Part shown: piece by piece, positions 14,383 through 48,871 of the stretch
Position numbering within the stretch: position 1 is the stretch's first letter
Layout: each line of letters begins with the position of its first letter
Assembly (NCBI GenBank): GCA_021841005.1
Contig: JAKBVZ010000010.1
Span: 6,302-70,301, forward strand
Origin: Actinomycetes bacterium
Lineage (GTDB): Bacteria; Actinomycetota; Acidimicrobiia; Acidimicrobiales; JAMCPL01
Length of the DNA: 64,000 nt
Reading direction: 5' to 3'
Notes under the pieces: generated by a model
Told to the model about the DNA's origin: nothing
Seen by the model: the letters and a program-made list of their open reading frames with translations, nothing else
Databases searched by the model: none
Made by a program: the position numbers and the translations under genes

Positions 14383-14484
14383 GGAGACCGCCAACCGCGC
14401 TATCACTGCAATAGCCGGCAAAGGAAAGACAGTGCTCCTGCATCGGCCTGTGCAGGAGACCGCCAACCGCGCTATCACTGCAAT
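14383..14484 (+). repeat. Perfect 30-bp direct repeat pair separated by a 42-bp unique insert (period 72)
   Basis: GGAGACCGCCAACCGCGCTATCACTGCAAT occurs at 14383-14412 and 14455-14484. The insert ends in CCTGTGCA. Confidence 0.9.
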
Positions 14485-18397: not shown

Positions 18398-19428
18398 GAG
18401 CGCTCCCAGAATCCAGGGCCGACCGGCTGGTCATAAGGTTGCTGCGCCCTGAGATACCCCTCAGAATCGATCATCAGCGGCAGTTGCGGCAAGGGCCGCG
18501 GGGCTGGTCCGAACACCGGCTGGGCACCGTCCAGCACGTCGAACATAGACTGGTGGCAAGGGCAGAGCAACTGCTGGGTCTGCTCCTGGTAAAGACCCAC
18601 CGGGCATCCTGCATGTGTGCAGACTTTTGAATACGCCACATACCCCTTGGGGGTCCAGGTCTCTCGCCCAGCCTTCGTGGTGAACGGGCTGGTGGAGGCC
18701 CTGAGCAGTACCGTCTGGTCCATGGCATTGCCCTCGTATCCGGGCGGGAACACCGTAATGATTCCACCAACCTCGAGATCATCTTCCTTGATCTTCCTGC
18801 CATGAATCGTTACAAGATATGACCCCTTTCTCCAGTTGGTCTTGTCAAGGGCCAACTTGGGCAATGGACCCAACGATCTGATTACCGGGAACGCAATGAC
18901 TACGCCAAGAATGCCTGCAGCGCCAGCCAGCATCTTCCCGAGGAACCCCCTGCGGCGCATCACGAGCTTGCCCCGATCTATGACTGCGGCCGCCATCTGC
19001 TCACGCTCGACATCGCTGGAACGCATATCATGGCGCTCCTCTACAAACGGCCCTCGCGGCAATAAATACTTTCCCCATGCAGCCAGTGCCGCACCTATGG
19101 CCAGCAACCCTATGCCCAACGTCAGCCCCTCCAACTGGGGTTGCCCGCCCTGCCAGTAAACCGCACCATATCCCGCAAAGCCCAGTGCCGCCAGCGCAAT
19201 CAGGAATGCTATCCATCTCTCCGTATGCCTGACGTTCTTGGCCGCAGGCCTAAGATGCGGATCATCCAGGGCCACTAGAGGCAATGGCGAGTCCGACACC
19301 TCACCATGATTCTCCGGTATTGGCCTATCGCCGCTCGCATGGCCCGGTACGTGGACTGGCTCATGAATCCGGCCACCGTCCGATTGCACACCCGTTTCCC
19401 TGTTCATCTGCGACAATCTCCTATCCAA
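18394..19428 (-). CDS. qcrA: Cytochrome bc1 complex Rieske iron-sulfur subunit QcrA
   Basis: Rieske motifs CTHAGCP and CPCHQS. It overlaps the qcrB start. Confidence 0.9.
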   Translation of the reverse strand: MDRRLSQMNRETGVQSDGGRIHEPVHVPGHASGDRPIPENHGEVSDSPLPLVALDDPHLRPAAKNVRHTERWIAFLIALAALGFAGYGAVYWQGGQPQLEGLTLGIGLLAIGAALAAWGKYLLPRGPFVEERHDMRSSDVEREQMAAAVIDRGKLVMRRRGFLGKMLAGAAGILGVVIAFPVIRSLGPLPKLALDKTNWRKGSYLVTIHGRKIKEDDLEVGGIITVFPPGYEGNAMDQTVLLRASTSPFTTKAGRETWTPKGYVAYSKVCTHAGCPVGLYQEQTQQLLCPCHQSMFDVLDGAQPVFGPAPRPLPQLPLMIDSEGYLRAQQPYDQPVGPGFWERS

Positions 19429-19474
19429 GAGGCAGTTCCCACTATCGACAATCTTCCACTCCAGACATCGGCGT

Positions 19475-20482
19475 TCATCTGCGATGATCTCCTATCCAGA
19501 AGGCGGCCAGCATCAGCACGCCAACTCCCACCAGTAAGGCGATGAACCCTTCCGCCACTGGACCCACTCCGCCAAGCGCCAGCCCTCCCCTATTGACAGG
19601 ATGCTGTATGTAACGAGTCACGTATGCATCTATGTCAGCCAGTTCCTTATTCGACAACTGTTTCGGGCTGAACCTGGGCATATTGCCAGGCCCCGTACGT
19701 GCCGCCTCTGCGACCTGGGTCTTGGTCGCCAGATGCAGCGTGGGAGCGAAGTACCCTGATCCAAGCGCATCGCCGGATCCGGTAATTGTATGGCAAGCCG
19801 CGCAGTTGAGCGCAAACAGCGACATACCTTGGCTCACGCTGACGTTTTGAAGGTTCACCTTAGGTATGCCAGGACCATTGACCTTTGACAGCGATGCCAC
19901 GAAATCGGCTATCTCCTGGGACTGCTTCGTCGTATATCTCGAAGGCTTGACGGCAGGCTGAGACGTCAGGTTTTCCAGCGGCATCCAGCCATTGGACACC
20001 CATAGATCCACGGTACCGGCACCCAGCCCCACCAGACTCGGAGCCCTGGAAGTACCGTATGCGTTGGCCCCATGGCAAGATGAACAGGTCGCCTCGAAAA
20101 GAACCCTGCCGGCAGCTTCATAGGACTTTCTAATCGTCTGGTAGGTGATCGGGCTACTACCACCGCTCGAAGTCACGCCACCTGGATTTGAACCACCTGG
20201 AGTCGCACTGCTCGAAGTCGCACCCTTGCCACCTGCCGGTTTACCACCTGCAAGCCAACCTGCCCGCTGCTTATCGCTTGGGCGCGCCTGCACATTAGAA
20301 GTCTTAGAATCACCCAAGGCTGAACCTGGCTTGTTGTGCGATGCTACACCAGGCGATACGGCAGCCATCGACAGAAGACCCCAAAGCGCAACCCCCAGAA
20401 CCACCATAACCGGGATGATCTTATGTATATTGCGTGTTGCCAGGCTTCCAGCCCTATCGTGGTCTCTCCGGTCCTTCCGCAT
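19475..20482 (-). CDS. qcrC: Dihaem cytochrome c subunit QcrC
   Basis: Two CxxCH haem-binding motifs (CSSCH, CAACH) and a C-terminal TM anchor. Confidence 0.9.
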   Translation of the reverse strand: MRKDRRDHDRAGSLATRNIHKIIPVMVVLGVALWGLLSMAAVSPGVASHNKPGSALGDSKTSNVQARPSDKQRAGWLAGGKPAGGKGATSSSATPGGSNPGGVTSSGGSSPITYQTIRKSYEAAGRVLFEATCSSCHGANAYGTSRAPSLVGLGAGTVDLWVSNGWMPLENLTSQPAVKPSRYTTKQSQEIADFVASLSKVNGPGIPKVNLQNVSVSQGMSLFALNCAACHTITGSGDALGSGYFAPTLHLATKTQVAEAARTGPGNMPRFSPKQLSNKELADIDAYVTRYIQHPVNRGGLALGGVGPVAEGFIALLVGVGVLMLAAFWIGDHRR

Positions 20483-21411: not shown

Positions 21412-24051
21412 TCAGCCGCGCGTTTCCAGATGGCTCAGCAACTTCGGCAACGTACCTGAATACACTACATAAAGTGCCTTGGTAGGCCGCGTCATCGCTA
21501 CATACAAGCTGCGCAGTCCCATGGGGTACTCATCTATGACACCTGCTGGATCTACGACAACCACTGTATCGAATTCCAGACCATTGGCCATCGCTGCGGG
21601 CACCACACTCAGCCCGGATGCCACGCCGGTACCACCGCTAACTTGCGTGACATCCCTTCCTACATTGCGAAGCGCTCCGGCAAGATCCTCGCAGAGTGAG
21701 GCAGGCGCAATCAAGGCGCATGTGCCCGCCGACTCCGGAGTGTATATATCTCCGATAACGCCAGCCACGCCTATCCCTATCTCCCCCTCCACCCTGATTG
21801 CGGCAGGACGTACACCCGCCACGCGAAGCGTTCTCGGGACAGTGCGCTCCACCATATACGCAGCAAGGACGGGTTCGGCTGCTTCCAGTATCTCTCGCGG
21901 TGTACGGTAACTCACCGTCAGCTCAACGACATCAATGGTCCTCTTCAAATGCATGTGAGCAAGCACATCGTTCCACGATGAAGGAGGGTCGGGACCCACT
22001 GCCTGCGCTATGTCCCCGGCAAGCGTCATGTCCCCCGAGAGGGAGCGCCGCGCTATGACACGCAACTCCATCGCAGAAAGCCCTTGGGCCTCATCGACCA
22101 CTATATAGCCATACTTCCTGGCTCGATCGTAGTCAGGGTGGCCACTAGCTGTGTAATGACCTGCCGGGCCGTGACGGTCATATGCACCAGGTCCACCGAC
22201 ACCAGCATGGGGCTTCCTCCTGGCTGCATTGCCGTCGAGTGGACCAAGCAGCGTCCTAGCCTCATCCAGCAAGGCTACATCCTCCTGCGACCATCGTGTA
22301 CGCGAGGAACTCGTGTACCCCTCCGTGCCCGTGCTGGCGTCTCCACATCGTCGTCTCTCCAGCAGCGCCAGTTCCTCTGGATGGAAGATCCCTTTCCCAG
22401 CTGCAGTAATAAGGACACTGGAACTGAAGAGATCGTAGAGGAACTCTTCTGCTGCCAGCCGAGGCCACATCCTGTCAAGAGCTATCTGCAGTTCCGGCAC
22501 TCTGAGCAAGCGACGGATCGTCCTGGCATCCAGCTCTTCCTGCGACACCAGTCCCTCTTCTTCGATCTCGGCTGGGAACGCTGTATCCGTACCTTCCACC
22601 CAAAGCCCACCAGACGCCTGATCGTCAGACGCCTGATCGTCAGCGCCGTCACTGCTTGGAGCGCTTCGGGCATCCGGAAAACCTTGGGAACCTTGGGAAC
22701 CTTGGGAACCTTGGGAACCTTGGGAACCTTGGGAACCTTGGGAACCTTGGGAACCTTGGGAACCTTGGGAACCTTCCATCTGCATGAGCATCGGACCATC
22801 CGTCTCCTGCTCAATGCAGGGCTCGATCTGGTCGCTGGAGATCCACCCCTCCGCAGCCTTATCAGGACGGACTTGCCTGACCCGGCTTGCTCTTTCCTTG
22901 TACTGTTCGAGCAGGTACCTGCATACCAGTGTTTCCAGGTACCGCCTCTTCACGTTGTGCGTTCCCTTGCGTGCTTTCACCTCTGCCACGAATCCAGCGC
23001 TTTGCGCAGCAGGGAGAACAAGCATGGTGGAACCGAAGGGTATCTCGCAATCATGCCGGAGGGGGCGCTGCCGGGTCCTCACGGCCCTACGTAGCAAAAC
23101 CGCCATACGAGCATCACCCTTGACCTTGGCGGTCATAAAATTATCCTTGTAGCTTGCCCGTATACCCCGTACAAGCCCCTGAACCGACGAGAGTGTGACG
23201 CCGCTCTCCCCCAGAGAAGGTAGTACGTGCTCTATATACCTCAAGAACACCGGGTTTGGGCCAACCACCAGCACGCCCTGAGTTTCCAGAGGAAACCGAT
23301 GAGTATAAAGAAGGTAAGCAGCCCTGTGCAATGCTACAGCCGTTTTACCGGTACCCGGCCCTCCCTGAACAACCAGAACTCCGCGGATGGGAGCCCTGAT
23401 TATTTCGTCCTGCTCGCCCTGTATGGTGGAGATCATGTCGCTCATACGTGAATCCCTTGGTCGTTCCAGCGCCGCAAGCAGGGCCCCAGGTGGCCCTGGA
23501 TCCACAACCTCCTCGCCGGCTCCGTTACCACCTTGCAACTCTCCGGCATCCGTCTCGAGCGAAAATCTTTCATCCTCGATAGATAGAACCTTCCGAGAGG
23601 CTACTTCTACGTGACGCCTCAGCACCAGCCCCATGGGATCCCGTCCAGTGGCGCGATAGAACGGCTCAGCGACGGGGGCTCTCCAATCGACCACCAATGG
23701 GTCCAAATTCTCATCCAGTATGCCCAAACGTCCGATATGGTAGGTTGCCTTGCCATCCTGTTCGCCTGACACATCGATGCGACCGAACAGAAGTGGCCTG
23801 TTGCCCACATCCGTCCGGGACATGGTACGCAAAATAGACTCAACCGCAGCATCACGTTCGAAACGCCCCTGGTGGGTACCTCCTCTATCCTGGCGGTACA
23901 GCCCAACCAGGCGCGATCTGGCACCAGCCGTCAGCTCTGCAAGCCTACGGTAGGCATTATCCAGATGAGCCTGTTCCAGAGCTATTTCTTGCGCCAAGGA
24001 TAGTTGCCGTGAAGAACCAGGAATGGTTTCACCCGTGCCAACGCCCTCCAT
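21412..24051 (-). CDS. helD: HelD-like UvrD-family helicase (RNA polymerase-associated)
   Basis: HelD N-terminal signature VVDWRAPVAEPFYRAT, Walker A GGPGTGKT and a UvrD C-terminal domain. It contains a (GSQ)10 insertion. Confidence 0.8.
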   Translation of the reverse strand: MEGVGTGETIPGSSRQLSLAQEIALEQAHLDNAYRRLAELTAGARSRLVGLYRQDRGGTHQGRFERDAAVESILRTMSRTDVGNRPLLFGRIDVSGEQDGKATYHIGRLGILDENLDPLVVDWRAPVAEPFYRATGRDPMGLVLRRHVEVASRKVLSIEDERFSLETDAGELQGGNGAGEEVVDPGPPGALLAALERPRDSRMSDMISTIQGEQDEIIRAPIRGVLVVQGGPGTGKTAVALHRAAYLLYTHRFPLETQGVLVVGPNPVFLRYIEHVLPSLGESGVTLSSVQGLVRGIRASYKDNFMTAKVKGDARMAVLLRRAVRTRQRPLRHDCEIPFGSTMLVLPAAQSAGFVAEVKARKGTHNVKRRYLETLVCRYLLEQYKERASRVRQVRPDKAAEGWISSDQIEPCIEQETDGPMLMQMEGSQGSQGSQGSQGSQGSQGSQGSQGSQGSQGFPDARSAPSSDGADDQASDDQASGGLWVEGTDTAFPAEIEEEGLVSQEELDARTIRRLLRVPELQIALDRMWPRLAAEEFLYDLFSSSVLITAAGKGIFHPEELALLERRRCGDASTGTEGYTSSSRTRWSQEDVALLDEARTLLGPLDGNAARRKPHAGVGGPGAYDRHGPAGHYTASGHPDYDRARKYGYIVVDEAQGLSAMELRVIARRSLSGDMTLAGDIAQAVGPDPPSSWNDVLAHMHLKRTIDVVELTVSYRTPREILEAAEPVLAAYMVERTVPRTLRVAGVRPAAIRVEGEIGIGVAGVIGDIYTPESAGTCALIAPASLCEDLAGALRNVGRDVTQVSGGTGVASGLSVVPAAMANGLEFDTVVVVDPAGVIDEYPMGLRSLYVAMTRPTKALYVVYSGTLPKLLSHLETRG
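22611..22640. repeat. In-frame tandem duplication, 15 bp x2, in helD (DDQAS x2)
   Basis: CAGACGCCTGATCGT occurs twice. Confidence 0.9.
22681..22776. repeat. Perfect 9-bp microsatellite (GGAACCTTG, ~10 units) in frame in helD, encoding (GSQ)10
   Basis: Nine perfect units at 22687-22767 plus partial flanking units. Confidence 0.95.
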
Positions 24052-26657: not shown

Positions 26658-28396
26658 TAGCCATCATAGGTGGGGGCATCTCCGGGCTGGTTGCCGCCAG
26701 ATCTCTGTCTATTGCCGCCCGCTCTGGCGAGTTTGGCGGAAATCTGGATGTCGATCTGTACGAAAGTACCGGTAGCCTTGGTGGCAAGCTCTCCAGCACC
26801 GATTTTGCGGGAGTAACCGTGGATACCGGACCTGAATCCTTCCTGGCTCGCCGTCCAGAGGCGGTAACGCTCTGCAGAGAACTCGGCCTCGAAGATCATC
26901 TTGCCCCCCCTGGAGCTTCTGGAGCATTCATAGCCATCGGCGACGATCTCAAGAGAATCCCATCCAATCTTGCCCTCGGAGTGCCAACACGCTTGGGACC
27001 GCTCGCACGGTCTGTATTGGAGCAACGTATATTGACTTTTCGTGGCATGTCCCGTTTTGCCGCTGGCTTCCTCTTACCCTCGCTACTTCCCGCGGACATC
27101 CACGTAGACGGACACCACTATCCAGCGTTCTCGCACACAGCCGCCGATGATGCAGATCTCGGGAGGCTGATCGAGCGGCATATGGGTCGCGAGGTCGCCA
27201 GGCACCTGGCTGATCCACTGATAGGGGGCATTCATGCCGGAAGCATCTATGGCATGAGCGCGGCAGCGGTGTTCCCTCCCATATTCGAAGCAAGCAAGGA
27301 ACGCGGCAGCTTGGCGGTCAATCTGGCTCGCAGGATGTCTGCCGGTGGACCTGCCAATAGCCGCAGCAAGCATCGCGACCATGACGCCGGTGACAACCAC
27401 CGTGCAAGCCCTGGTAGCAGTGGTGGCCCTAGTGTCAGCAACAGCTCTGGTAGTGCCGCGGCTCCTGTATTCTATGCCCTCGAGGGAGGCATGAGCACCC
27501 TGGTACGTGCGCTGGAGAATGACATAATCCACCGGGGAGTCACGATCCACAAAGATACACCTGTAGTTGCCGTGGACAGGCTCCGGGGCAAATGGCGTCT
27601 AGCTGTAAGTACACCCACGGGTACGGCTAAGCGAGCAGGCAGCAGTGGAAGTGGAAGTGGAAGTGGAAGTGGAAGTGGAAGTGGAAGTGGAACGGATGTC
27701 GGGGTAGTCACGGGGGCAACAGCAATGACGGGTGCAAGACAAGGTACAGACGCCAAGGAAAAAGGAGACGGCGGGAACAAGCCTGGCGGCGGCCAAGACA
27801 CCTACGACGGTATCGTACTTGCATTGCCGGCTGGTGCCGCAGGAAGGCTTATCCAGCCTATTGCTCCTGAGGTTGCCCGTATGCTGTCGAGAATACCTTA
27901 CGCCTCGGTATCCGTGGTCACCCTGCATGTCGAGCATCCGGCAGCGAACGACCTACCGGACGGCACAGGGTATGTCGTACCAGCAGACAGCGGGCAGATG
28001 GTAACGGCGTGTACGTTCCTCTCGAAAAAGTGGCCTCACCTCGCGACCGGTCGCGGGTCCCTCTTGCGAGTATCCCTCGGGCGCTACAGAGACAGCCGGC
28101 ATCTCTCCCTTGACAAGCAGGGCCTAGTCGAAACTGTGACTACCGAGTTGGAGCAGATGCTTCACCGGCATATCGATACCCGCGCTTCGCTCGTTACGCG
28201 TTGGATGGACGCTTTCCCACAATATCGTGTCGGGCACCTTGCCATGGTGGAGCAAATCCGCCGCACCCTTCCTGAGATCGGACCAGTCTCACTAGCTGGT
28301 GCAGCTTACGGAGGTGTAGGGATACCGGCATGCATCAAGAGCGGCCATGATGCCATGACATCCATCCTCGAACAGCTACGGAACGCCACATGGTAG
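26645..28396 (+). CDS. hemY: Protoporphyrinogen/coproporphyrinogen III oxidase (HemY/CgoX)
   Basis: FAD-binding N-terminus IAIIGGGISGL and HemY-family similarity. It follows hemE and hemH. Confidence 0.85.
   Translation: MGMRIAIIGGGISGLVAARSLSIAARSGEFGGNLDVDLYESTGSLGGKLSSTDFAGVTVDTGPESFLARRPEAVTLCRELGLEDHLAPPGASGAFIAIGDDLKRIPSNLALGVPTRLGPLARSVLEQRILTFRGMSRFAAGFLLPSLLPADIHVDGHHYPAFSHTAADDADLGRLIERHMGREVARHLADPLIGGIHAGSIYGMSAAAVFPPIFEASKERGSLAVNLARRMSAGGPANSRSKHRDHDAGDNHRASPGSSGGPSVSNSSGSAAAPVFYALEGGMSTLVRALENDIIHRGVTIHKDTPVVAVDRLRGKWRLAVSTPTGTAKRAGSSGSGSGSGSGSGSGSGTDVGVVTGATAMTGARQGTDAKEKGDGGNKPGGGQDTYDGIVLALPAGAAGRLIQPIAPEVARMLSRIPYASVSVVTLHVEHPAANDLPDGTGYVVPADSGQMVTACTFLSKKWPHLATGRGSLLRVSLGRYRDSRHLSLDKQGLVETVTTELEQMLHRHIDTRASLVTRWMDAFPQYRVGHLAMVEQIRRTLPEIGPVSLAGAAYGGVGIPACIKSGHDAMTSILEQLRNATW
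27647..27688. repeat. 6-bp microsatellite (GGAAGT x7) in frame in hemY, encoding (GS)n
   Basis: Seven perfect units. Confidence 0.95.
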
Positions 28397-30271: not shown

Positions 30272-30535
30272 TCAGGAGATTGCGGTCAGTATCTTCTTGC
30301 GCTCCGACTCGTTGGTACCACCCCAGATCCCATGCTGTTCCTTGATCCGGATAGCATAGTCGAGGCATTCCTGTCTCACCGAGCACTTGGCACAGATCGC
30401 TTTTGCGGCAGCCTCACGGTTATGCCTGTCATTCCTGCGTTCCCCCTGAAATGGAGCATAAAAAATCCTCGACTGAGGCCCCCTGCACAATGCCCTCTCC
30501 TGCCAACTCGATTCGTAACCGCTGTACAACATCAC
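30272..30535 (-). CDS. whiB: WhiB-family transcriptional regulator
   Basis: Four-Cys cluster (C..C.KC..R.EC) and the GIWGG turn motif; 87 aa. Confidence 0.9.
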   Translation of the reverse strand: MMLYSGYESSWQERALCRGPQSRIFYAPFQGERRNDRHNREAAAKAICAKCSVRQECLDYAIRIKEQHGIWGGTNESERKKILTAIS

Positions 30536-30742
30536 CCAACCCCTCTACTCTTCGACAACACGTCCCGCAAAGCACTGCCTGCACATTGACCGCCGGATCC
30601 ATGAAAGATATAAACACATCCCATTAATCTACGGTATCGTTCCTTATCTGACGCACCTTGGCAATACCAACCTCCACTACCAGAATAGCGGAAAACGCCA
30701 GAATATTCAATAGCTACGACAAGCCATTCTATAATGCTAACC

Positions 30743-30850
30743 ATGTCATACGCTCCAGTTACAGGTCGTTACAACGTTCTAGATACGCTACGGCCACTAT
30801 GCCGTAGCCCGGGGGAGATGCCATACGCTCCAGTTACAGGTCGTTACAAC
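30743..30850 (+). repeat. Variant hairpin element (30776-30817) flanked by a 33-bp direct duplication (32/33 identical, period 75)
   Basis: The duplicated sequence is ATG(T/C)CATACGCTCCAGTTACAGGTCGTTACAAC. The hairpin GCTACGGC-CACTAT-GCCGTAGC carries a compensatory stem pair. Confidence 0.9.
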
Positions 30851-30887
30851 ACTGACCTCCGCAGAGTTGCTACGCTCGGTTGGTAGT

Positions 30888-31955
30888 ATGGACCTTGTAA
30901 CGTTCTTCCGCCAGAATAAAGTTCTCATCGTCGCAGGCAAGGGGGGGGTAGGAAAGAGTACGGTGGCTGCCACCATGGCGCTTGCCAGTGCACGTGCTGG
31001 GATGTCAGCGCTGATAGTGGACCTTGAAGGCAAGACGGCCATCAAGACTGCATTTGGCATGGAAGGATCGCTTGACTATGAAGAAGTACTACTGTATTCA
31101 AGCGGAGCAGGGGCCGCCAGAGCAAGAAGGATCACTCCCGATGATGCACTGCTGGAATATTTGGCGGACCATAGCCTGAAAAGGATATCAAAACGACTGG
31201 TAAGTTCGGGTGCATTGGAAGTCGTTGCCACCGCCATACCAGGTATCAGAGACATTCTCGTACTCGGCAAGATAAAGCAGCTTGAACGACGTGAAATGGC
31301 TGACGTGATCATTGTGGATGCGCCAGCAACCGGCCATGCCATGACTTTTCTCACCTCTGCATCCGGACTCCTTGAAGCTGCACGATCAGGTCCTGTACGT
31401 ACTCAAGCACAAGAAGTGGTCGAGTTCCTATCCGATCCCTCACGCTGCCGGGTAGTGCTAGTGACACTCCCAGAAGAAATGCCTGTAGCAGAAAGTATCG
31501 AGACTGCCTACCAGCTGGAAGATAGAGCAGGCGTCACTCTAGGTCCAGTCATAGTCAACGGATGTCTTGAACCATTACCACCTGCCGACATCTTGAGTGA
31601 AGCCAATAAAAAGTCTTTTCTTGGCTCGCTCCATGGACCATTCAACTTCACTGGTTCGGAAACCATTAAAATTACTCCTTCGATCGACCTCTTGGAAGGC
31701 ATGGCTCAGGCGGCGACATTCCACGATCACCGCCGCATGCAACAGGCTGAGCAACGTCAACGCCTGGCAGAAGAGCTACCATTACCTCAGCTACACCTGC
31801 CATACCTGTTCAGACCATCCTCAGGATTGAACGAACTCCACGCCCTGTCAGAGTCCCTGTCAAGAGGCATTGCCGGTATACCTGATCCAGCTGGCGAGGA
31901 TGCTGATACGTCTGATATGCCCGGCGTACCTGGCAGGAAAGCAACCGAATTATGA
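30888..31955 (+). CDS. ArsA-family P-loop ATPase
   Basis: Deviant Walker A GKGGVGKST. It is the first of a conserved pair. The ORF track starts at TTG 30867. Confidence 0.8.
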   Translation: MDLVTFFRQNKVLIVAGKGGVGKSTVAATMALASARAGMSALIVDLEGKTAIKTAFGMEGSLDYEEVLLYSSGAGAARARRITPDDALLEYLADHSLKRISKRLVSSGALEVVATAIPGIRDILVLGKIKQLERREMADVIIVDAPATGHAMTFLTSASGLLEAARSGPVRTQAQEVVEFLSDPSRCRVVLVTLPEEMPVAESIETAYQLEDRAGVTLGPVIVNGCLEPLPPADILSEANKKSFLGSLHGPFNFTGSETIKITPSIDLLEGMAQAATFHDHRRMQQAEQRQRLAEELPLPQLHLPYLFRPSSGLNELHALSESLSRGIAGIPDPAGEDADTSDMPGVPGRKATEL

Positions 31956-33268
31956 CAGGAGGGCACACCGGGAACGTCCAGCATCCTAATACCCTGGATC
32001 ACCTGACGTCCGAGCATTCGGTCATAGTCTGCTGCGGCTCTGGTGGCGTAGGAAAGACCACCACATCGGCAGCCATAGCGCTGGCTGGCGCCATGTCAGG
32101 TCGCAGAACCTGCGTGGTAACCGTAGACCCGGCGAGAAGGCTGGCCACCGCCCTTGGGATAGAGCAGCTCACCAACACTCCCGTACCTATCTCCCCTGAG
32201 GCACTGGAGCTGCCGCAAGGAGGCGAACTCTGGGCAATGATGCTCGACCCGAAAGCAACCTTTGACGGCCTCATTGACCGGTACGCGCCCAGCAGGCAGC
32301 AGGCCGAGCGGATAATGGAAAATAGGATATACAAAGAGCTCACTTCCGCCCTATCAGGAACTCAGGAATACATGGCAATGGAGAAACTCTACGAACTCGT
32401 AGAGGAGGGAGGATACGACCTTGTCGTAGTGGACACTCCGCCTACACGTAATGCGATAGACTTCCTGGAAGCACCTTCGAGACTCGTGCACTTTCTAGAA
32501 CATCGTCTTTTCAGAATGCTGCTGGCGCCCACCCGCGTATACCTGAAAGCTGTATCTATCGCCACCCAGGCATTCCTTCGTACCATCTCGAAGGTGGCAG
32601 GCGCAGAAATCGTCGACGATGCAGTAGCATTTTTCCAGGCATTCGAAGGTATGGAAGAAGGCTTCCGCACTAGGGCCGAGAAAATGTCCGCCCTGGTCAA
32701 GGAGACCTCTACAGGATTTGTGCTCGTGACATCCCCCCGGCAGGATGCAGTTACCGAGGCGGACTGGTTCGCCAAGAGGTTGCACCAGATGGGTATTGAG
32801 GTAAAGGCCCTGGTGGTGAACCGGACACATCCTATGTTTGTCCAAGGTGAGGAATTGCTCCAGTCGCTTGTCACCACGCACTTGGCTGATGCTCCTACGC
32901 TGCCGGACGGTGGGGCCGGCACCGGCTCTGCAGAGGACTACCTCAAGTCTCTACTGTCGCTCATACCTCCACCAGTCCATACCGAAAATACAGCAATCGT
33001 TACCGACCCCGATACTATCTTCGAGCTACTCCTTGCGAATCTGCTAAGGTACCAGCTCATAGCATTGACCGAACAGCATACGTACTCCGATCTGGCTGCG
33101 CACTTGGCTACTGCCCATCGGCAAGACCCAGATATTGCCGCCGGCTCCACCGCCCCTGCACAGCGGCCCTTTGCCGTGATCAACGTGCCGTTGATGACTG
33201 AGGACGTGCATGATCTCGAAGGACTGAAAGCCATGGCAGGGGCGCTGGCGACTTCCGCGCGCGCTTAG
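31952..33268 (+). CDS. ArsA-family P-loop ATPase
   Basis: Walker A GSGGVGKTT and VVVDTPPT. It overlaps the upstream paralogue's stop. Confidence 0.8.
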   Translation: MTGGHTGNVQHPNTLDHLTSEHSVIVCCGSGGVGKTTTSAAIALAGAMSGRRTCVVTVDPARRLATALGIEQLTNTPVPISPEALELPQGGELWAMMLDPKATFDGLIDRYAPSRQQAERIMENRIYKELTSALSGTQEYMAMEKLYELVEEGGYDLVVVDTPPTRNAIDFLEAPSRLVHFLEHRLFRMLLAPTRVYLKAVSIATQAFLRTISKVAGAEIVDDAVAFFQAFEGMEEGFRTRAEKMSALVKETSTGFVLVTSPRQDAVTEADWFAKRLHQMGIEVKALVVNRTHPMFVQGEELLQSLVTTHLADAPTLPDGGAGTGSAEDYLKSLLSLIPPPVHTENTAIVTDPDTIFELLLANLLRYQLIALTEQHTYSDLAAHLATAHRQDPDIAAGSTAPAQRPFAVINVPLMTEDVHDLEGLKAMAGALATSARA

Positions 33269-33384: not shown

Positions 33385-33459
33385 CGGGAAGTAGCGCAGT
33401 TTGGTCAGCGCGCAGCGTTTGGGACGCTGAGGCCGGGGGTTCGAATCCCCCCTTCCCGA
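33385..33459 (+). tRNA. tRNA-Pro (anticodon TGG)
   Basis: Hand-folded cloverleaf: acceptor CGGGAAG/CTTCCCG, anticodon stem CAGCG/CGCTG with loop TTTGGGA, T arm GGGGG-TTCGAAT-CCCCC; 75 nt. Confidence 0.9.
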
Positions 33460-33547
33460 CCGCTACATCATCGTCAGTCCGCTGCGGCCACTATGCCGCA
33501 GCTCGTGCATGTTCGAATCCCCCCTTCCCGACCGCTACATCATCGTC
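33439..33547 (+). repeat. 35-bp hairpin element (33476-33510) flanked by a perfect 37-bp duplication of the tRNA-Pro 3' end plus trailer
   Basis: GTTCGAATCCCCCCTTCCCGACCGCTACATCATCGTC occurs at 33439-33475 and 33511-33547. The insert is AGTCCGCTGCGGCCACTATGCCGCAGCTCGTGCAT. Confidence 0.95.
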
Positions 33548-35276: not shown

Positions 35277-36992
35277 CTATCTTACTCTTGCACGAAGGCG
35301 CACACCGGGAATCAGCCGCGGTATATCTTCATCTGCATCTGCAATGGCTGTGCCGGCATGCTCCGTACCGGTGTCATTTGTGCCGGCATGCTCAGTACCG
35401 CCGACACCCAGCCGGAGCGCCTTATCCCTTACCGGTACCGGATACTCTCCGGTCAGGCAGGCGGTACAGAAACCTCCACCGGGCACTCCAATGGCCTTGT
35501 AGAGGCCTTCAAGGCTCAAGTAAGCGAGCGAGTCGACTCCCAGGTATCCTTCTATTTCTCTGACCGTCCTGTTGGACGCCAGCAACTCTGATCTCTCAGG
35601 GGTATCTATGCCATAAAAGCACGGCCACCGGAAGGGTGGGGAAGAGATACGTAAGTGCACCTCCCTGGCTCCTGATTCCTTGAGCATCCTCACCATCTCC
35701 CGGGTAGTGGTCCCTCTCACGATCGAGTCATCCACTACGACGAGCCGCTTCCCTGAGATGGATTCCTTCAGCGGGTTGAGCTTGCGCCTTACGCCTCTAA
35801 CCCGGGCCATCTGGCCAGGAGTGATAAACGTACGCCCGATATAGCGGTTCTTTACAAGTCCTTGGCCGTAAGGGATGCCGCTTGCCTTGGAGTAGCCCTC
35901 TGCTGCGGGGACACCCGAATCTGGAACGCCCATCACCATATCTGCACGAACGGGTAACTCGGCTGCCAGGTACTCACCCATCCTCCTCCTCGCCCCATGC
36001 ACCTCGGTTCCGTAAAGATTGCTGTCAGGCCGCGCAAAGTAGACAAACTCGAATATGCACAGGTGCGGATCGCCGGCTCCCGCAGGCGACAGACGCAGCG
36101 ACCGCACCCCGCCCGCATCTATCACCACCAATTCACCCGGCTCGATCTCACGCAGGAACCTTGCTCCGATCACATCCAGAGCAGGCGTCTCAGAGGCAAG
36201 GACATAGCCTGGTTCCCCACCTGCTACACCTACTCCACCCTCCAGAGGTCTGCTGCGGCCACTATGCCGCAGCCCGTGCACTGGTTCCCCACCTGCTACA
36301 CCTACTCCACCCTCCAGTCCACCTGGTACGCCTGATCCCCGCTCACCATCTCTGGATACACCGTTCGATCCATTACCTGGCAGCACACCGAGGCACAGCG
36401 GCCGGAAGCCGTCCGGATCCCTCGCTCCGAAGATATGCTTGGCATCCATCGCTACAAACGAGTAGGCACCCTGCAGCCTGGGGAGCACTTCCACCATCGC
36501 CGCTTCCAACAACCCATCATTACCGGTACCGGCTCCTGTCCCAGCCCCCCTGGACGCCATTGCTCGCACTACAGCCTTGGAAAGCAGCTCCATCACAAAA
36601 TCGGAATCGGTGGTCAACACCTCCGGTATCATCCCAGCTTCCAGCCCAAGCTCCTCCACGTTGGTCAGGTTGCCATTGTGCGCAAGAGCCAGTGAAGCAC
36701 TCCCGACCGACCTGAATACCGGCTGGGCATTCCGCCACGTCGAATCGCCGGCAGTGGAATAGCGAGTATGGCCTATAGCAATACTTCCCGGCAGGCAACC
36801 GATGGTGCGCTCGTCGAAGACCGACGATACGAGGCCCATGTCTTTCACTACGGTTACAAGCTCGCCGTCACTCACGGCCATACCTGCTGATTCCTGGCCA
36901 CGGTGCTGCAGTGAATACAGGCCGTCAAAAGTAAGCTGTGCCGCTCGATAACCGGGGGCATACACCGCAAACACCCCGCAGGCCTCCTTCAT
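35277..36992 (-). CDS. purF: Amidophosphoribosyltransferase
   Basis: Propeptide plus N-terminal Cys (MKEACGVFAV), PRTase motif VVVDDSIVRGTT. It carries a 72-bp in-frame insertion at 36209-36317 and a long C-terminal tail. Confidence 0.9.
   Translation of the reverse strand: MKEACGVFAVYAPGYRAAQLTFDGLYSLQHRGQESAGMAVSDGELVTVVKDMGLVSSVFDERTIGCLPGSIAIGHTRYSTAGDSTWRNAQPVFRSVGSASLALAHNGNLTNVEELGLEAGMIPEVLTTDSDFVMELLSKAVVRAMASRGAGTGAGTGNDGLLEAAMVEVLPRLQGAYSFVAMDAKHIFGARDPDGFRPLCLGVLPGNGSNGVSRDGERGSGVPGGLEGGVGVAGGEPVHGLRHSGRSRPLEGGVGVAGGEPGYVLASETPALDVIGARFLREIEPGELVVIDAGGVRSLRLSPAGAGDPHLCIFEFVYFARPDSNLYGTEVHGARRRMGEYLAAELPVRADMVMGVPDSGVPAAEGYSKASGIPYGQGLVKNRYIGRTFITPGQMARVRGVRRKLNPLKESISGKRLVVVDDSIVRGTTTREMVRMLKESGAREVHLRISSPPFRWPCFYGIDTPERSELLASNRTVREIEGYLGVDSLAYLSLEGLYKAIGVPGGGFCTACLTGEYPVPVRDKALRLGVGGTEHAGTNDTGTEHAGTAIADADEDIPRLIPGVRLRARVR
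36209..36317 (+). repeat. 35-bp hairpin element (36246-36280) flanked by a perfect 37-bp duplication, in frame inside purF
   Basis: CTGGTTCCCCACCTGCTACACCTACTCCACCCTCCAG occurs at 36209-36245 and 36281-36317. The insert is AGGTCTGCTGCGGCCACTATGCCGCAGCCCGTGCA. The 72-bp total equals 24 codons. Confidence 0.95.
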
Positions 36993-48760: not shown

Positions 48761-48871
48761 CGGTACAACCGCACCAGGCATTACGGGCAAGGCCACATAC
48801 CGATTGCAATTGGCTATGACGGCACGATAGAACTTCGGTACAACCGCACCAGGCATTACAGGCAAGGCCAC
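48761..48871 (+). repeat. 36-bp direct repeat pair (35/36 identical) separated by a 39-bp unique insert (period 75)
   Basis: CGGTACAACCGCACCAGGCATTAC(G/A)GGCAAGGCCAC occurs at 48761-48796 and 48836-48871. Confidence 0.9.

Follow-up and report, generated by a model that had tools for sequence, protein, structure and literature searches.

The stretch of DNA analysed, referred to here as the window, is 64,000 nucleotides long and comes from an assembly of 2.45 Mb in 36 contigs, with 56% G+C, that is 94% complete. Near the middle of the window, a whiB-family gene (Pfam PF02467, E = 5e-21) lies divergently from two consecutive ArsA-type ATPase genes, the first of which matches Pfam PF02374 (E = 5e-21). 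These assignments bear out the whiB / arsA-like divergent setting given in a preliminary description of this DNA. The region between the genes holds a compact unit, in which a 33-bp sequence occurs twice with a 42-nt fragment between the two copies. The copies match at 32 of 33 positions and start 75 nt apart, exactly as had been described. The features of the locus are as follows.

30272-30535, minus strand: whiB-family gene, the divergent neighbour
30730-30735, plus strand: TATAAT, candidate -10 box for the arsA-like operon
30743-30775, no strand: left copy of the 33-bp target-site duplication, ATGTCATACGCTCCAGTTACAGGTCGTTACAAC
30776-30817, plus strand: 42-nt inserted fragment, a spacer-sized cargo with the H hairpin, GTTCTAGATAC GCTACGGC CACTAT GCCGTAGC CCGGGGGAG
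30787-30808, plus strand: hairpin core, A4:T19 variant, GCTACGGC-CACTAT-GCCGTAGC, with an 8-bp stem and a 6-nt loop
30787-30794 and 30801-30808, plus strand: stem arms of this core, with the loop at 30795-30800
30818-30850, no strand: right copy of the 33-bp target-site duplication, ATGCCATACG..., with T changed to C at the fourth base
30885-31955, plus strand: first ArsA-type ATPase gene (alternative TTG start at 30867)
31952-33268, plus strand: second ArsA-type ATPase gene

The unit ends 17-35 nt upstream of the first ArsA-type ATPase gene, depending on which start is used. The TATAAT was read from the sequence and is conserved in the sister genome described below; a consensus promoter scan called no promoter at 30730-30735, and the box has no good -35 box to go with it. 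If this candidate is real, the arsA-like 5' leader probably opens with the unit. Taken alone, the locus is a modest matter, namely, an arsA-like leader lengthened by 75 bp and supplied with a stable hairpin.

What kind of hairpin is it? The core belongs to a family, designated H, whose consensus in the window, GCTGCGGC-CACTAT-GCCGCAGC, is found at 33481, at 36252, and, on the other strand, at 796. Relative to this consensus, stem position 4 and its partner at position 19 are both altered, from G:C to A:T. The preliminary description had stated that pairing and loop survive this change, and they do: the variant, taken as single-stranded DNA, keeps the 8-bp fold, at -8.7 kcal/mol versus -10.6 kcal/mol for the consensus. 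The core scores 42.8 bits with the covariance model of the H family (R1), and the H pattern is matched 6 times in the window versus 0.10 times expected from shuffles. The 42-mer as a whole has no other copy with two or fewer mismatches in the genome, and no parent for it was found.

Empty sites in a sister genome

The polarity of the event can be read from G050, a sister genome of the same genus that is about 93% identical across this intergenic region. At the orthologous site, G050 has the 33-nt target once and lacks 75 bp, corresponding to the insert plus one repeat, while the alignment is colinear on both sides. The G050 target begins with ATGT, like the left copy of the unit, which means that it is the right copy that changed T to C in the genome studied here. 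The empty site identifies the unit as a genuine insertion that duplicated 33 bp of its target after the two genomes had split; insertion and duplication at this locus are proven. The 33-plus-42 layout in the preliminary description holds; it represents a target-site duplication and not a local 75-bp repeat.

Other units tell the same story. About six further units of the sampled regions are also empty in G050, and three or four are common to both genomes, so the process ran both before and after the split. At six H units, target duplication is confirmed directly by the empty sites. Recent activity appears lower in G050, where only 2 exact units were found in 391 kb versus about 16 expected at the density of the genome studied here (about 8-fold fewer recent units) and where 1 of 13 near-consensus H cores is perfect versus 51 of 79. 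Cas1 was not detected in G050, in whose 91%-complete assembly gene loss and incomplete binning are indistinguishable.

One of the shared units deserves a separate mention. The H unit at C2:23030-23137 is common with G050 (C8:97924-98060) and hence old, yet the two copies of its 37-nt duplication are identical here at 37 of 37 positions. In the G050 orthologue, the two duplication copies have come to differ. The contrast points to gene conversion between the copies, or to contraction and expansion, and the identity of a duplication is therefore not a reliable clock.

The H family and a wider class of units

How common is the hairpin? A search that tolerated mismatches gave 87 real H cores in this genome, and a covariance model built from these 87 cores found 88 there and 21 in G050. 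With the same model, H was absent from three other genomes of the genus and from one of the sister genus. A pattern search of 201 genomes of the order placed H in this genome and in G050 and elsewhere returned only three matches with 1-2 mismatches, all in one unrelated genome (G057). The exact core had no match in viral contigs and none in metagenome contigs, and among genome contigs it matched only G050. BLAST with a 48-nt extended consensus gave only chance-level matches in phages and plasmids.

Nearly every H copy is flanked by a direct repeat that is specific to its locus, and repeat and insert together span 70-73 bp, usually 72. What is conserved in H is a stretch of about 4 nt (GTCC or GTCT), followed by the 22-nt core and then by CCGTG. 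Outside this part, the insert ends vary from copy to copy, by 0-11 nt on the left and 1-14 nt on the right, with the inverted repeat internal to the insert. H is thus an element without defined termini. Copies are located within coding regions, behind tRNAs, and in a MITE. Two sister units lie in the window.

33439-33547, plus strand: 37-bp duplication of the 3' end of tRNA-Pro around a 35-nt consensus H insert
36209-36317, plus strand: 37-bp duplication around a 35-nt consensus H insert

A further perfect consensus core, at 796-817 on the minus strand, has canonical flanks, but no duplicated target can be recognised around it; this core may be old, may have been converted, or may have served as a source. 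At some loci, two to four identical units stand in tandem with the same insert repeated. Most simply, these are later expansions by unequal recombination.

The copies fall into variants, with a CGCTAT loop at 14 loci and a mismatched C2.A21 pair at at least 5 loci. How such variants travel can be glimpsed from two inserts. At C25:71920, where G050 has an empty site, the 35-nt insert reproduces exactly a segment of the older copy at C5:39726. At C31:134434, the insert runs across the junction between duplication and insert of C17:51828, so that two duplication bases stand beside its H. Both fit a re-capture of resident units with a sliding window, which would explain the sub-family structure of the flanks. 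H has also been spread by a family of MITEs, about 240 bp in length, whose terminal inverted repeats read TAGAGGCTCAGCGGATAGGCA and which have an H unit near the right end; the composite of MITE and H has spread to six sites (C14:46532, C15:16867, C25:66920, C25:97574, C28:12746, and C36:5650). The MITE copy at C25:66920 holds the only other A4:T19 hairpin, and the MITE is absent from the G050 site.

Is the hairpin itself essential to the geometry? A census blind to it was made from exact direct repeats of at least 24 nt at spacings of 40-120 nt, with true CRISPR arrays excluded. It yielded a sharp peak at periods of 70-76 (98 loci, with the maximum at 72) over a background near zero. The wider 64-82 band comprises 106 loci, 43 of them with H and the rest mostly with unique inserts of about 31-44 nt; more than 50 inserts of the class are unique sequences. 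Duplication length peaks at 36-37 nt for H and non-H units alike, and inserts are mostly 33-40 nt long. The 33-bp duplication upstream of the ArsA-type ATPase genes lies at the short edge of this distribution. H is simply the commonest cargo of a wider insertion class, three members of which, without a hairpin, lie in the window.

14383-14484, no strand: non-hairpin unit of the same geometry, 30-bp duplication, 42-nt insert, period 72
19402-19504: third non-hairpin unit of the window
48761-48871, no strand: non-hairpin unit of the same geometry, 36-bp duplication (35/36), 39-nt insert, period 75

Where does the other cargo come from? Five non-H inserts are 100% copies, 31-37 nt long, of unique segments elsewhere in the genome, and two further ones are 91-94% identical to a genomic source. 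The insert of the unit at 14383-14484 is 91% identical over 33 nt to C34:37572-37604. In base composition, the non-H inserts are host-like, with 56% G+C, versus 49.5% in real spacers. Tandem arrays are found here too: at C30:85180, C32:16141, C17:78520, and C31:83203, units with non-hairpin inserts and a period of 70-74 are repeated as a whole three to four times. Units thus expand whatever their cargo. The window also contains two perfect short tandem repeats, of AACCTTGGG (about 10.7 times) at 22680-22775 and of AGTGGA (about 8 times) at 27644-27692.

Compensation and decay in the stem

The double change at this locus had been read, in the preliminary description, as covariation, and hence as a sign that the structure is selected or needed for propagation. 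To what extent do the collected copies agree? At the level of copies, 87 distinct 38-nt sequences from both genomes were compared with column shuffles, which ignore relatedness. Stem cells are paired in 97% of cases, and there are 8 double-changed cells versus 1.3 ± 1.0 expected (0/500 shuffles), at three of the eight stem pairs (21/500 shuffles). Since H variants propagate and the shuffles ignore relatedness, the test was repeated with one row per distinct core. Among these 35 haplotypes, the excess of double cells is marginal (6 versus 2.9 ± 1.5; 21/500), and the number of pairs with doubles is 3 versus 2.1 expected (163/500).

One-sided changes dominate in the stem, with 18 wobble and 21 unpaired cells versus 8 compensated ones, so that most substitutions in the larger alignment are non-compensatory, the outcome that the preliminary description had itself named as one against its reading. 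By a count from the sequences, G.T (18 cells) is about as frequent as A.C (about 16 cells), and all but a few changes are transitions. With G.T and A.C equally common, there is no strand signal and hence no RNA signal. Copies common with G050 show uncompensated decay in both lineages. The orthologous pair at C2:23030, for example, differs at stem positions 4, 6, and 19 without compensation, and the G050 orthologue of C25:45701 has both A7.C16 and G6.T17. Resident H copies are therefore without purifying selection for pairing and decay neutrally. What stands of the earlier claim is that the double change is real and that doubles are in excess at the level of copies. Its wider reading is undercut by the marginal excess among haplotypes, the one-sided majority, and the decay of old copies, so that covariation is weak evidence that the hairpin is under selection. 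At most, pairing plays a part when copies are made, or repair templated by the hairpin restores it.

How, then, did the A4:T19 pair come about? It may be a product of two independent transitions at mutational hot spots of a GC-rich palindrome (C to T on either strand), unrelated to pairing, and the preponderance of transitions among the stem variants is in keeping with this, as are the marginal haplotype-level excess and the repeated one-sided alteration of positions 19, 17, 21, 4, and 6. Pair 4/19 itself has 6 G.T and 2 A.C cells, and pair 2/21 has undergone 8 one-sided changes and no double. Set against these points is the youth of the unit. An insertion younger than the G050 split caps divergence at about 3.5% per lineage, and the two copies of the duplication have a single difference in 33 positions; about 0.3-0.8 changes would be expected in 22 nt, and two in-situ changes in one pair would be unlikely, at an estimated 1-5% by our own reckoning. 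The same double change is also present at a second locus, C25:66920, with different flanks, and a stepwise series from T3:A20 through T3.G20 to C3:G20, on an A6:T17 background, extends over three different loci. With the copy-level excess of doubles added, a coincidence of two hits seems rather unlikely.

Most likely, the source that was copied already had A4:T19, or else hairpin-templated repair produced the pair; fixation by selection at this locus is improbable. The C25:66920 copy was considered as the parent and rejected, as its flanks do not match. As for repair, hairpin-templated correction by quasipalindrome template switching is a mutation process known from E. coli genetics, and it yields exactly such a complementary double change in an inverted repeat without selection. 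It is a mutational route, whereas H is an element.

Could the hairpin act as RNA, for instance in a stabilising or regulatory role within the arsA-like 5' leader, with the compensatory change reflecting selection on RNA structure? The unit is probably in a transcribed leader, directly 3' of the candidate TATAAT box, and the stem is kept in the variant. These points are outweighed by the behaviour of the family, which has no Rfam match and is oriented relative to long open reading frames in the same direction 27 times and in the opposite direction 24 times, by a crude count based on the frames. The parity of one-sided G.T and A.C changes, the positions of copies within coding regions, behind tRNAs, and in a MITE, and the uncompensated decay of orthologous copies speak against the idea as well. 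There is no sign of an RNA function for H, and we regard such a role as very improbable.

Adaptation genes and the origin of the units

Which enzyme could make a unit of this geometry? The genome has two CRISPR adaptation modules. (i) A Cas4-Cas1 fusion and Cas2 are encoded beside Cas3, Cas8u, and Cas7-type genes (type I-G-like). (ii) A second Cas1 and Cas2 are encoded beside a type III effector operon. Both Cas1 genes (279 and 251 bits) are intact, without internal stops, and each has a Cas2 gene adjacent to it. The contigs with cas genes also carry H units and so belong to the same organism. The arrays of the two systems, type I-G and type III, are located at C19:151-1455, C24:242226-242739, and C33:2776-7130; in the type III array, spacers 9 and 10 are identical.

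The dimensions of these arrays correspond to those of the units. In both systems the repeats are 36 nt long, and the spacers measure 33-39 nt (mode 34-35) in one and 35-42 nt (mode 38-40) in the other. A 36-nt repeat plus a spacer of 33-42 nt places the arrays in the same 70-76-bp range as the ectopic units. From these enzymes, an integration at a non-CRISPR site would be expected to produce a duplication of 36-37 bp and an insert of 35-40 bp. Taken separately, the target duplications match the length of the resident repeat (a peak at 36-37 versus 36 nt), and the insert of the locus, at 42 nt, lies within the spacer range and equals the longest real spacer. The units do not form a CRISPR array proper, in that the duplicated "repeat" differs at every locus and multi-unit arrays repeat the same insert.

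There is also a connection by sequence. The ectopic insert at C4:15933, CCTAAACTCCCTCCACCGCCTAAAACGAACGAGGGAT, overlaps the type III spacer C33_sp45 (ACCGCCTAAAACAAACGAGGGATTAAAG...) at 24 of 25 nt. Its unit was cleanly inserted, with 37 bp of target duplicated, and the corresponding site in G050 is empty. The overlap means that an ectopic unit and a true array sampled the same foreign sequence, and it is the strongest single item for a CRISPR link. No phage behind this common protospacer was found in viral contigs. Similar overlaps join spacers of the type I-G and type III arrays (20 nt between C19_sp6 and C33_sp53, and 23 of 25 nt between C19_sp7 and C33_sp39) and are thus typical of the adaptation pool. 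Finally, 44% of duplication ends have G as their first base, versus about 28% for G in the genome, taken as half of the 56% G+C (P of about 1e-4, normal approximation), and both real CRISPR repeats begin with G. Apart from this first base, information content at the duplication borders is near zero, and no leader-like or repeat-like motif was found at the target sites.

From these correspondences a mechanism can be proposed. A 42-bp fragment with the lineage-specific palindrome H would have been joined into the arsA-like leader region through two nicks, one in each strand and 33 bp from each other; filling of the gaps would then have duplicated the 33 bp. The enzyme would be one of the two Cas1-Cas2 adaptation modules, acting outside a CRISPR array in the ectopic, "neo-CRISPR" manner, with the target duplication in place of the repeat and the insert in place of the spacer. 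H would be the commonest cargo, spreading as copies of copies between chromosomal sites. Two variants of the scheme were dropped. H cannot be a pseudo-repeat, that is, the target rather than the cargo, because the empty sites are without H altogether. A self-dimer prespacer of two annealed H strands predicts symmetric flanks, TGCACGG...CCGTGCA, and the left flank actually seen is GTCC or GTCT.

Several observations count against ectopic integration by Cas1-Cas2. H makes up about 45% of inserts, and no feature was found that accounts for this dominance: the stability of H falls in the top 1% of random 35-mers, and the non-H inserts are not enriched in hairpin potential relative to random genome 36-mers (P = 0.8). 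The duplications range from about 30 to 41 nt, more loosely than a real 36-nt repeat. Just 7 of 56 non-H inserts have a source in the 94%-complete assembly, and the seven sources have no PAM or other common flank. A PAM would be expected if the Cas4-Cas1 module were used; its absence is nonetheless compatible with the PAM-less type III-associated module. H is found in 0 of 83 real spacers, an absence that selection against self-targeting (autoimmunity) would explain. Lastly, some old units are common to G050 although no Cas1 was detected there.

How do other origins compare? One candidate is a tiny, non-autonomous, MITE-like transposon moved by a dedicated transposase or integrase with a stagger of about 36 bp, in which case the CRISPR-like sizes would be coincidental. 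It would account naturally for a single 22-nt palindrome with conserved short flanks at 88 sites, for insertions recent enough to be polymorphic between sister genomes, and for real CRISPR arrays without H. It has no place for the more than 50 units of identical geometry whose inserts are unrelated and unique, some of them exact genome copies and one overlapping a spacer's protospacer, and it is at odds with an inverted repeat that is internal, with insert ends that vary, and with the lack of defined termini. No longer element with H ends was found, and the one Y1 (HUH) transposase of the genome is a TnpA of the ordinary IS200/IS605 kind without H in its vicinity. Overall, a transposon of this kind is improbable. 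Replication slippage, or nonhomologous end joining (NHEJ) that captures filler DNA, would dispense with an integrase altogether. The arrays of two to four identical units are best explained by slippage or unequal recombination, albeit after a first event; for that first event itself, the tight lengths of insert and duplication and the period peak at 72 over a background of about zero imply a molecular ruler, and the inserts are non-local sequences. We know of no NHEJ filler that comes with a fixed duplication of about 36 bp, and we give this origin almost no credence, the least of all those considered.

On balance, ectopic integration by Cas1-Cas2 is probably the best explanation of the units, judging from their geometry and cargo. 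We infer the catalyst from links that are circumstantial; the only indirect sign of catalysis is the contrast with G050, where Cas1 was not detected and recent units are about 8-fold fewer. A more far-reaching proposal concerns H itself and is put forward only tentatively. H may be a new kind of selfish element, a palindromic "super-spacer" without an enzyme or defined ends of its own, that is re-inserted by the host's CRISPR integrase at non-CRISPR sites (genes, tRNA trailers, promoters, and mobile elements). Its palindrome, kept by compensatory or templated changes, would make it a prespacer thousands of times better than average DNA.

A RAYT/IS200 link to H was also considered and rejected, given a single Y1 transposase gene without H nearby. 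This gene, of the IS200/IS605 type, is located at C16:55045-55407, at a contig end; a degraded second copy is found at C31:72151, and neither is related to H.

Comparison with known systems

Off-target integration by Cas1-Cas2, giving rise to 'neo-CRISPR' loci, is reported by Nivala, Shipman and Church (2018, Nat Microbiol 3:310; cited through bioRxiv 10.1101/148544 and PMC7054753) for E. coli over-producing Cas1-Cas2, with natural cases that are circumstantial only. The points in common are these: a fragment the size of a spacer is integrated outside an array, with duplication of a repeat-length piece of the target; the cargo may have any sequence; the cell's own genome may be the source; and active adaptation genes are required. 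Unlike those neo-CRISPR loci, the units described here amount to about 100 events fixed in the 2.45-Mb genome of a wild organism, with the interior of genes and promoters among their sites, and include one palindromic 35-nt cargo that has been re-inserted 88 times, with sub-families, in the manner of a mobile element.

Other systems share some of the properties. In casposons, as proposed here, a Cas1-type enzyme carries out the integration, and the target duplication is set by the geometry of the enzyme. Casposons are large, encode their own enzyme, and have terminal inverted repeats and duplications of 14-15 bp. The units differ in their duplications of 33-39 bp and their cargo of 35-42 bp without termini, and both Cas1 genes lie in ordinary cas operons. 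Like MITEs and REP elements, H is short, dispersed, palindromic, non-coding, and lineage-specific. However, MITEs have terminal inverted repeats and short, fixed duplications, whereas H has an internal inverted repeat, variable ends, and a 30-41-bp duplication; REPs make no duplication and accompany RAYT genes, whereas the duplication around H is as long as H itself. Unlike either, H has sister units with unrelated cargo. The mycobacterial MIRU-type VNTRs are similar in their units of about 50-100 bp, sometimes in tandem, at gene junctions of an actinobacterial host. In MIRU the whole unit is conserved between loci, whereas half of each unit described here is locus-specific target DNA.

The most fitting reading of the unit upstream of the ArsA-type ATPase genes is that it belongs to a set of about 100 ectopic integrations resembling spacer uptake, which together make a natural and large-scale variant, with palindromic and mobile-like cargo, of what is known from laboratory work. 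Should Cas1-Cas2 be the maker of these units, the genome would be a natural record of large-scale ectopic spacer integration, so far shown mainly in over-producing E. coli. CRISPR adaptation could then be a real mutagenic force, one that remodels promoters (as here), introduces 24-residue in-frame insertions into proteins, and duplicates the ends of tRNAs. It would also follow that a short palindrome can hijack the integrase and behave as a mobile element, and the organism would offer a testable system for prespacer efficiency and for the leaderless choice of integration sites.
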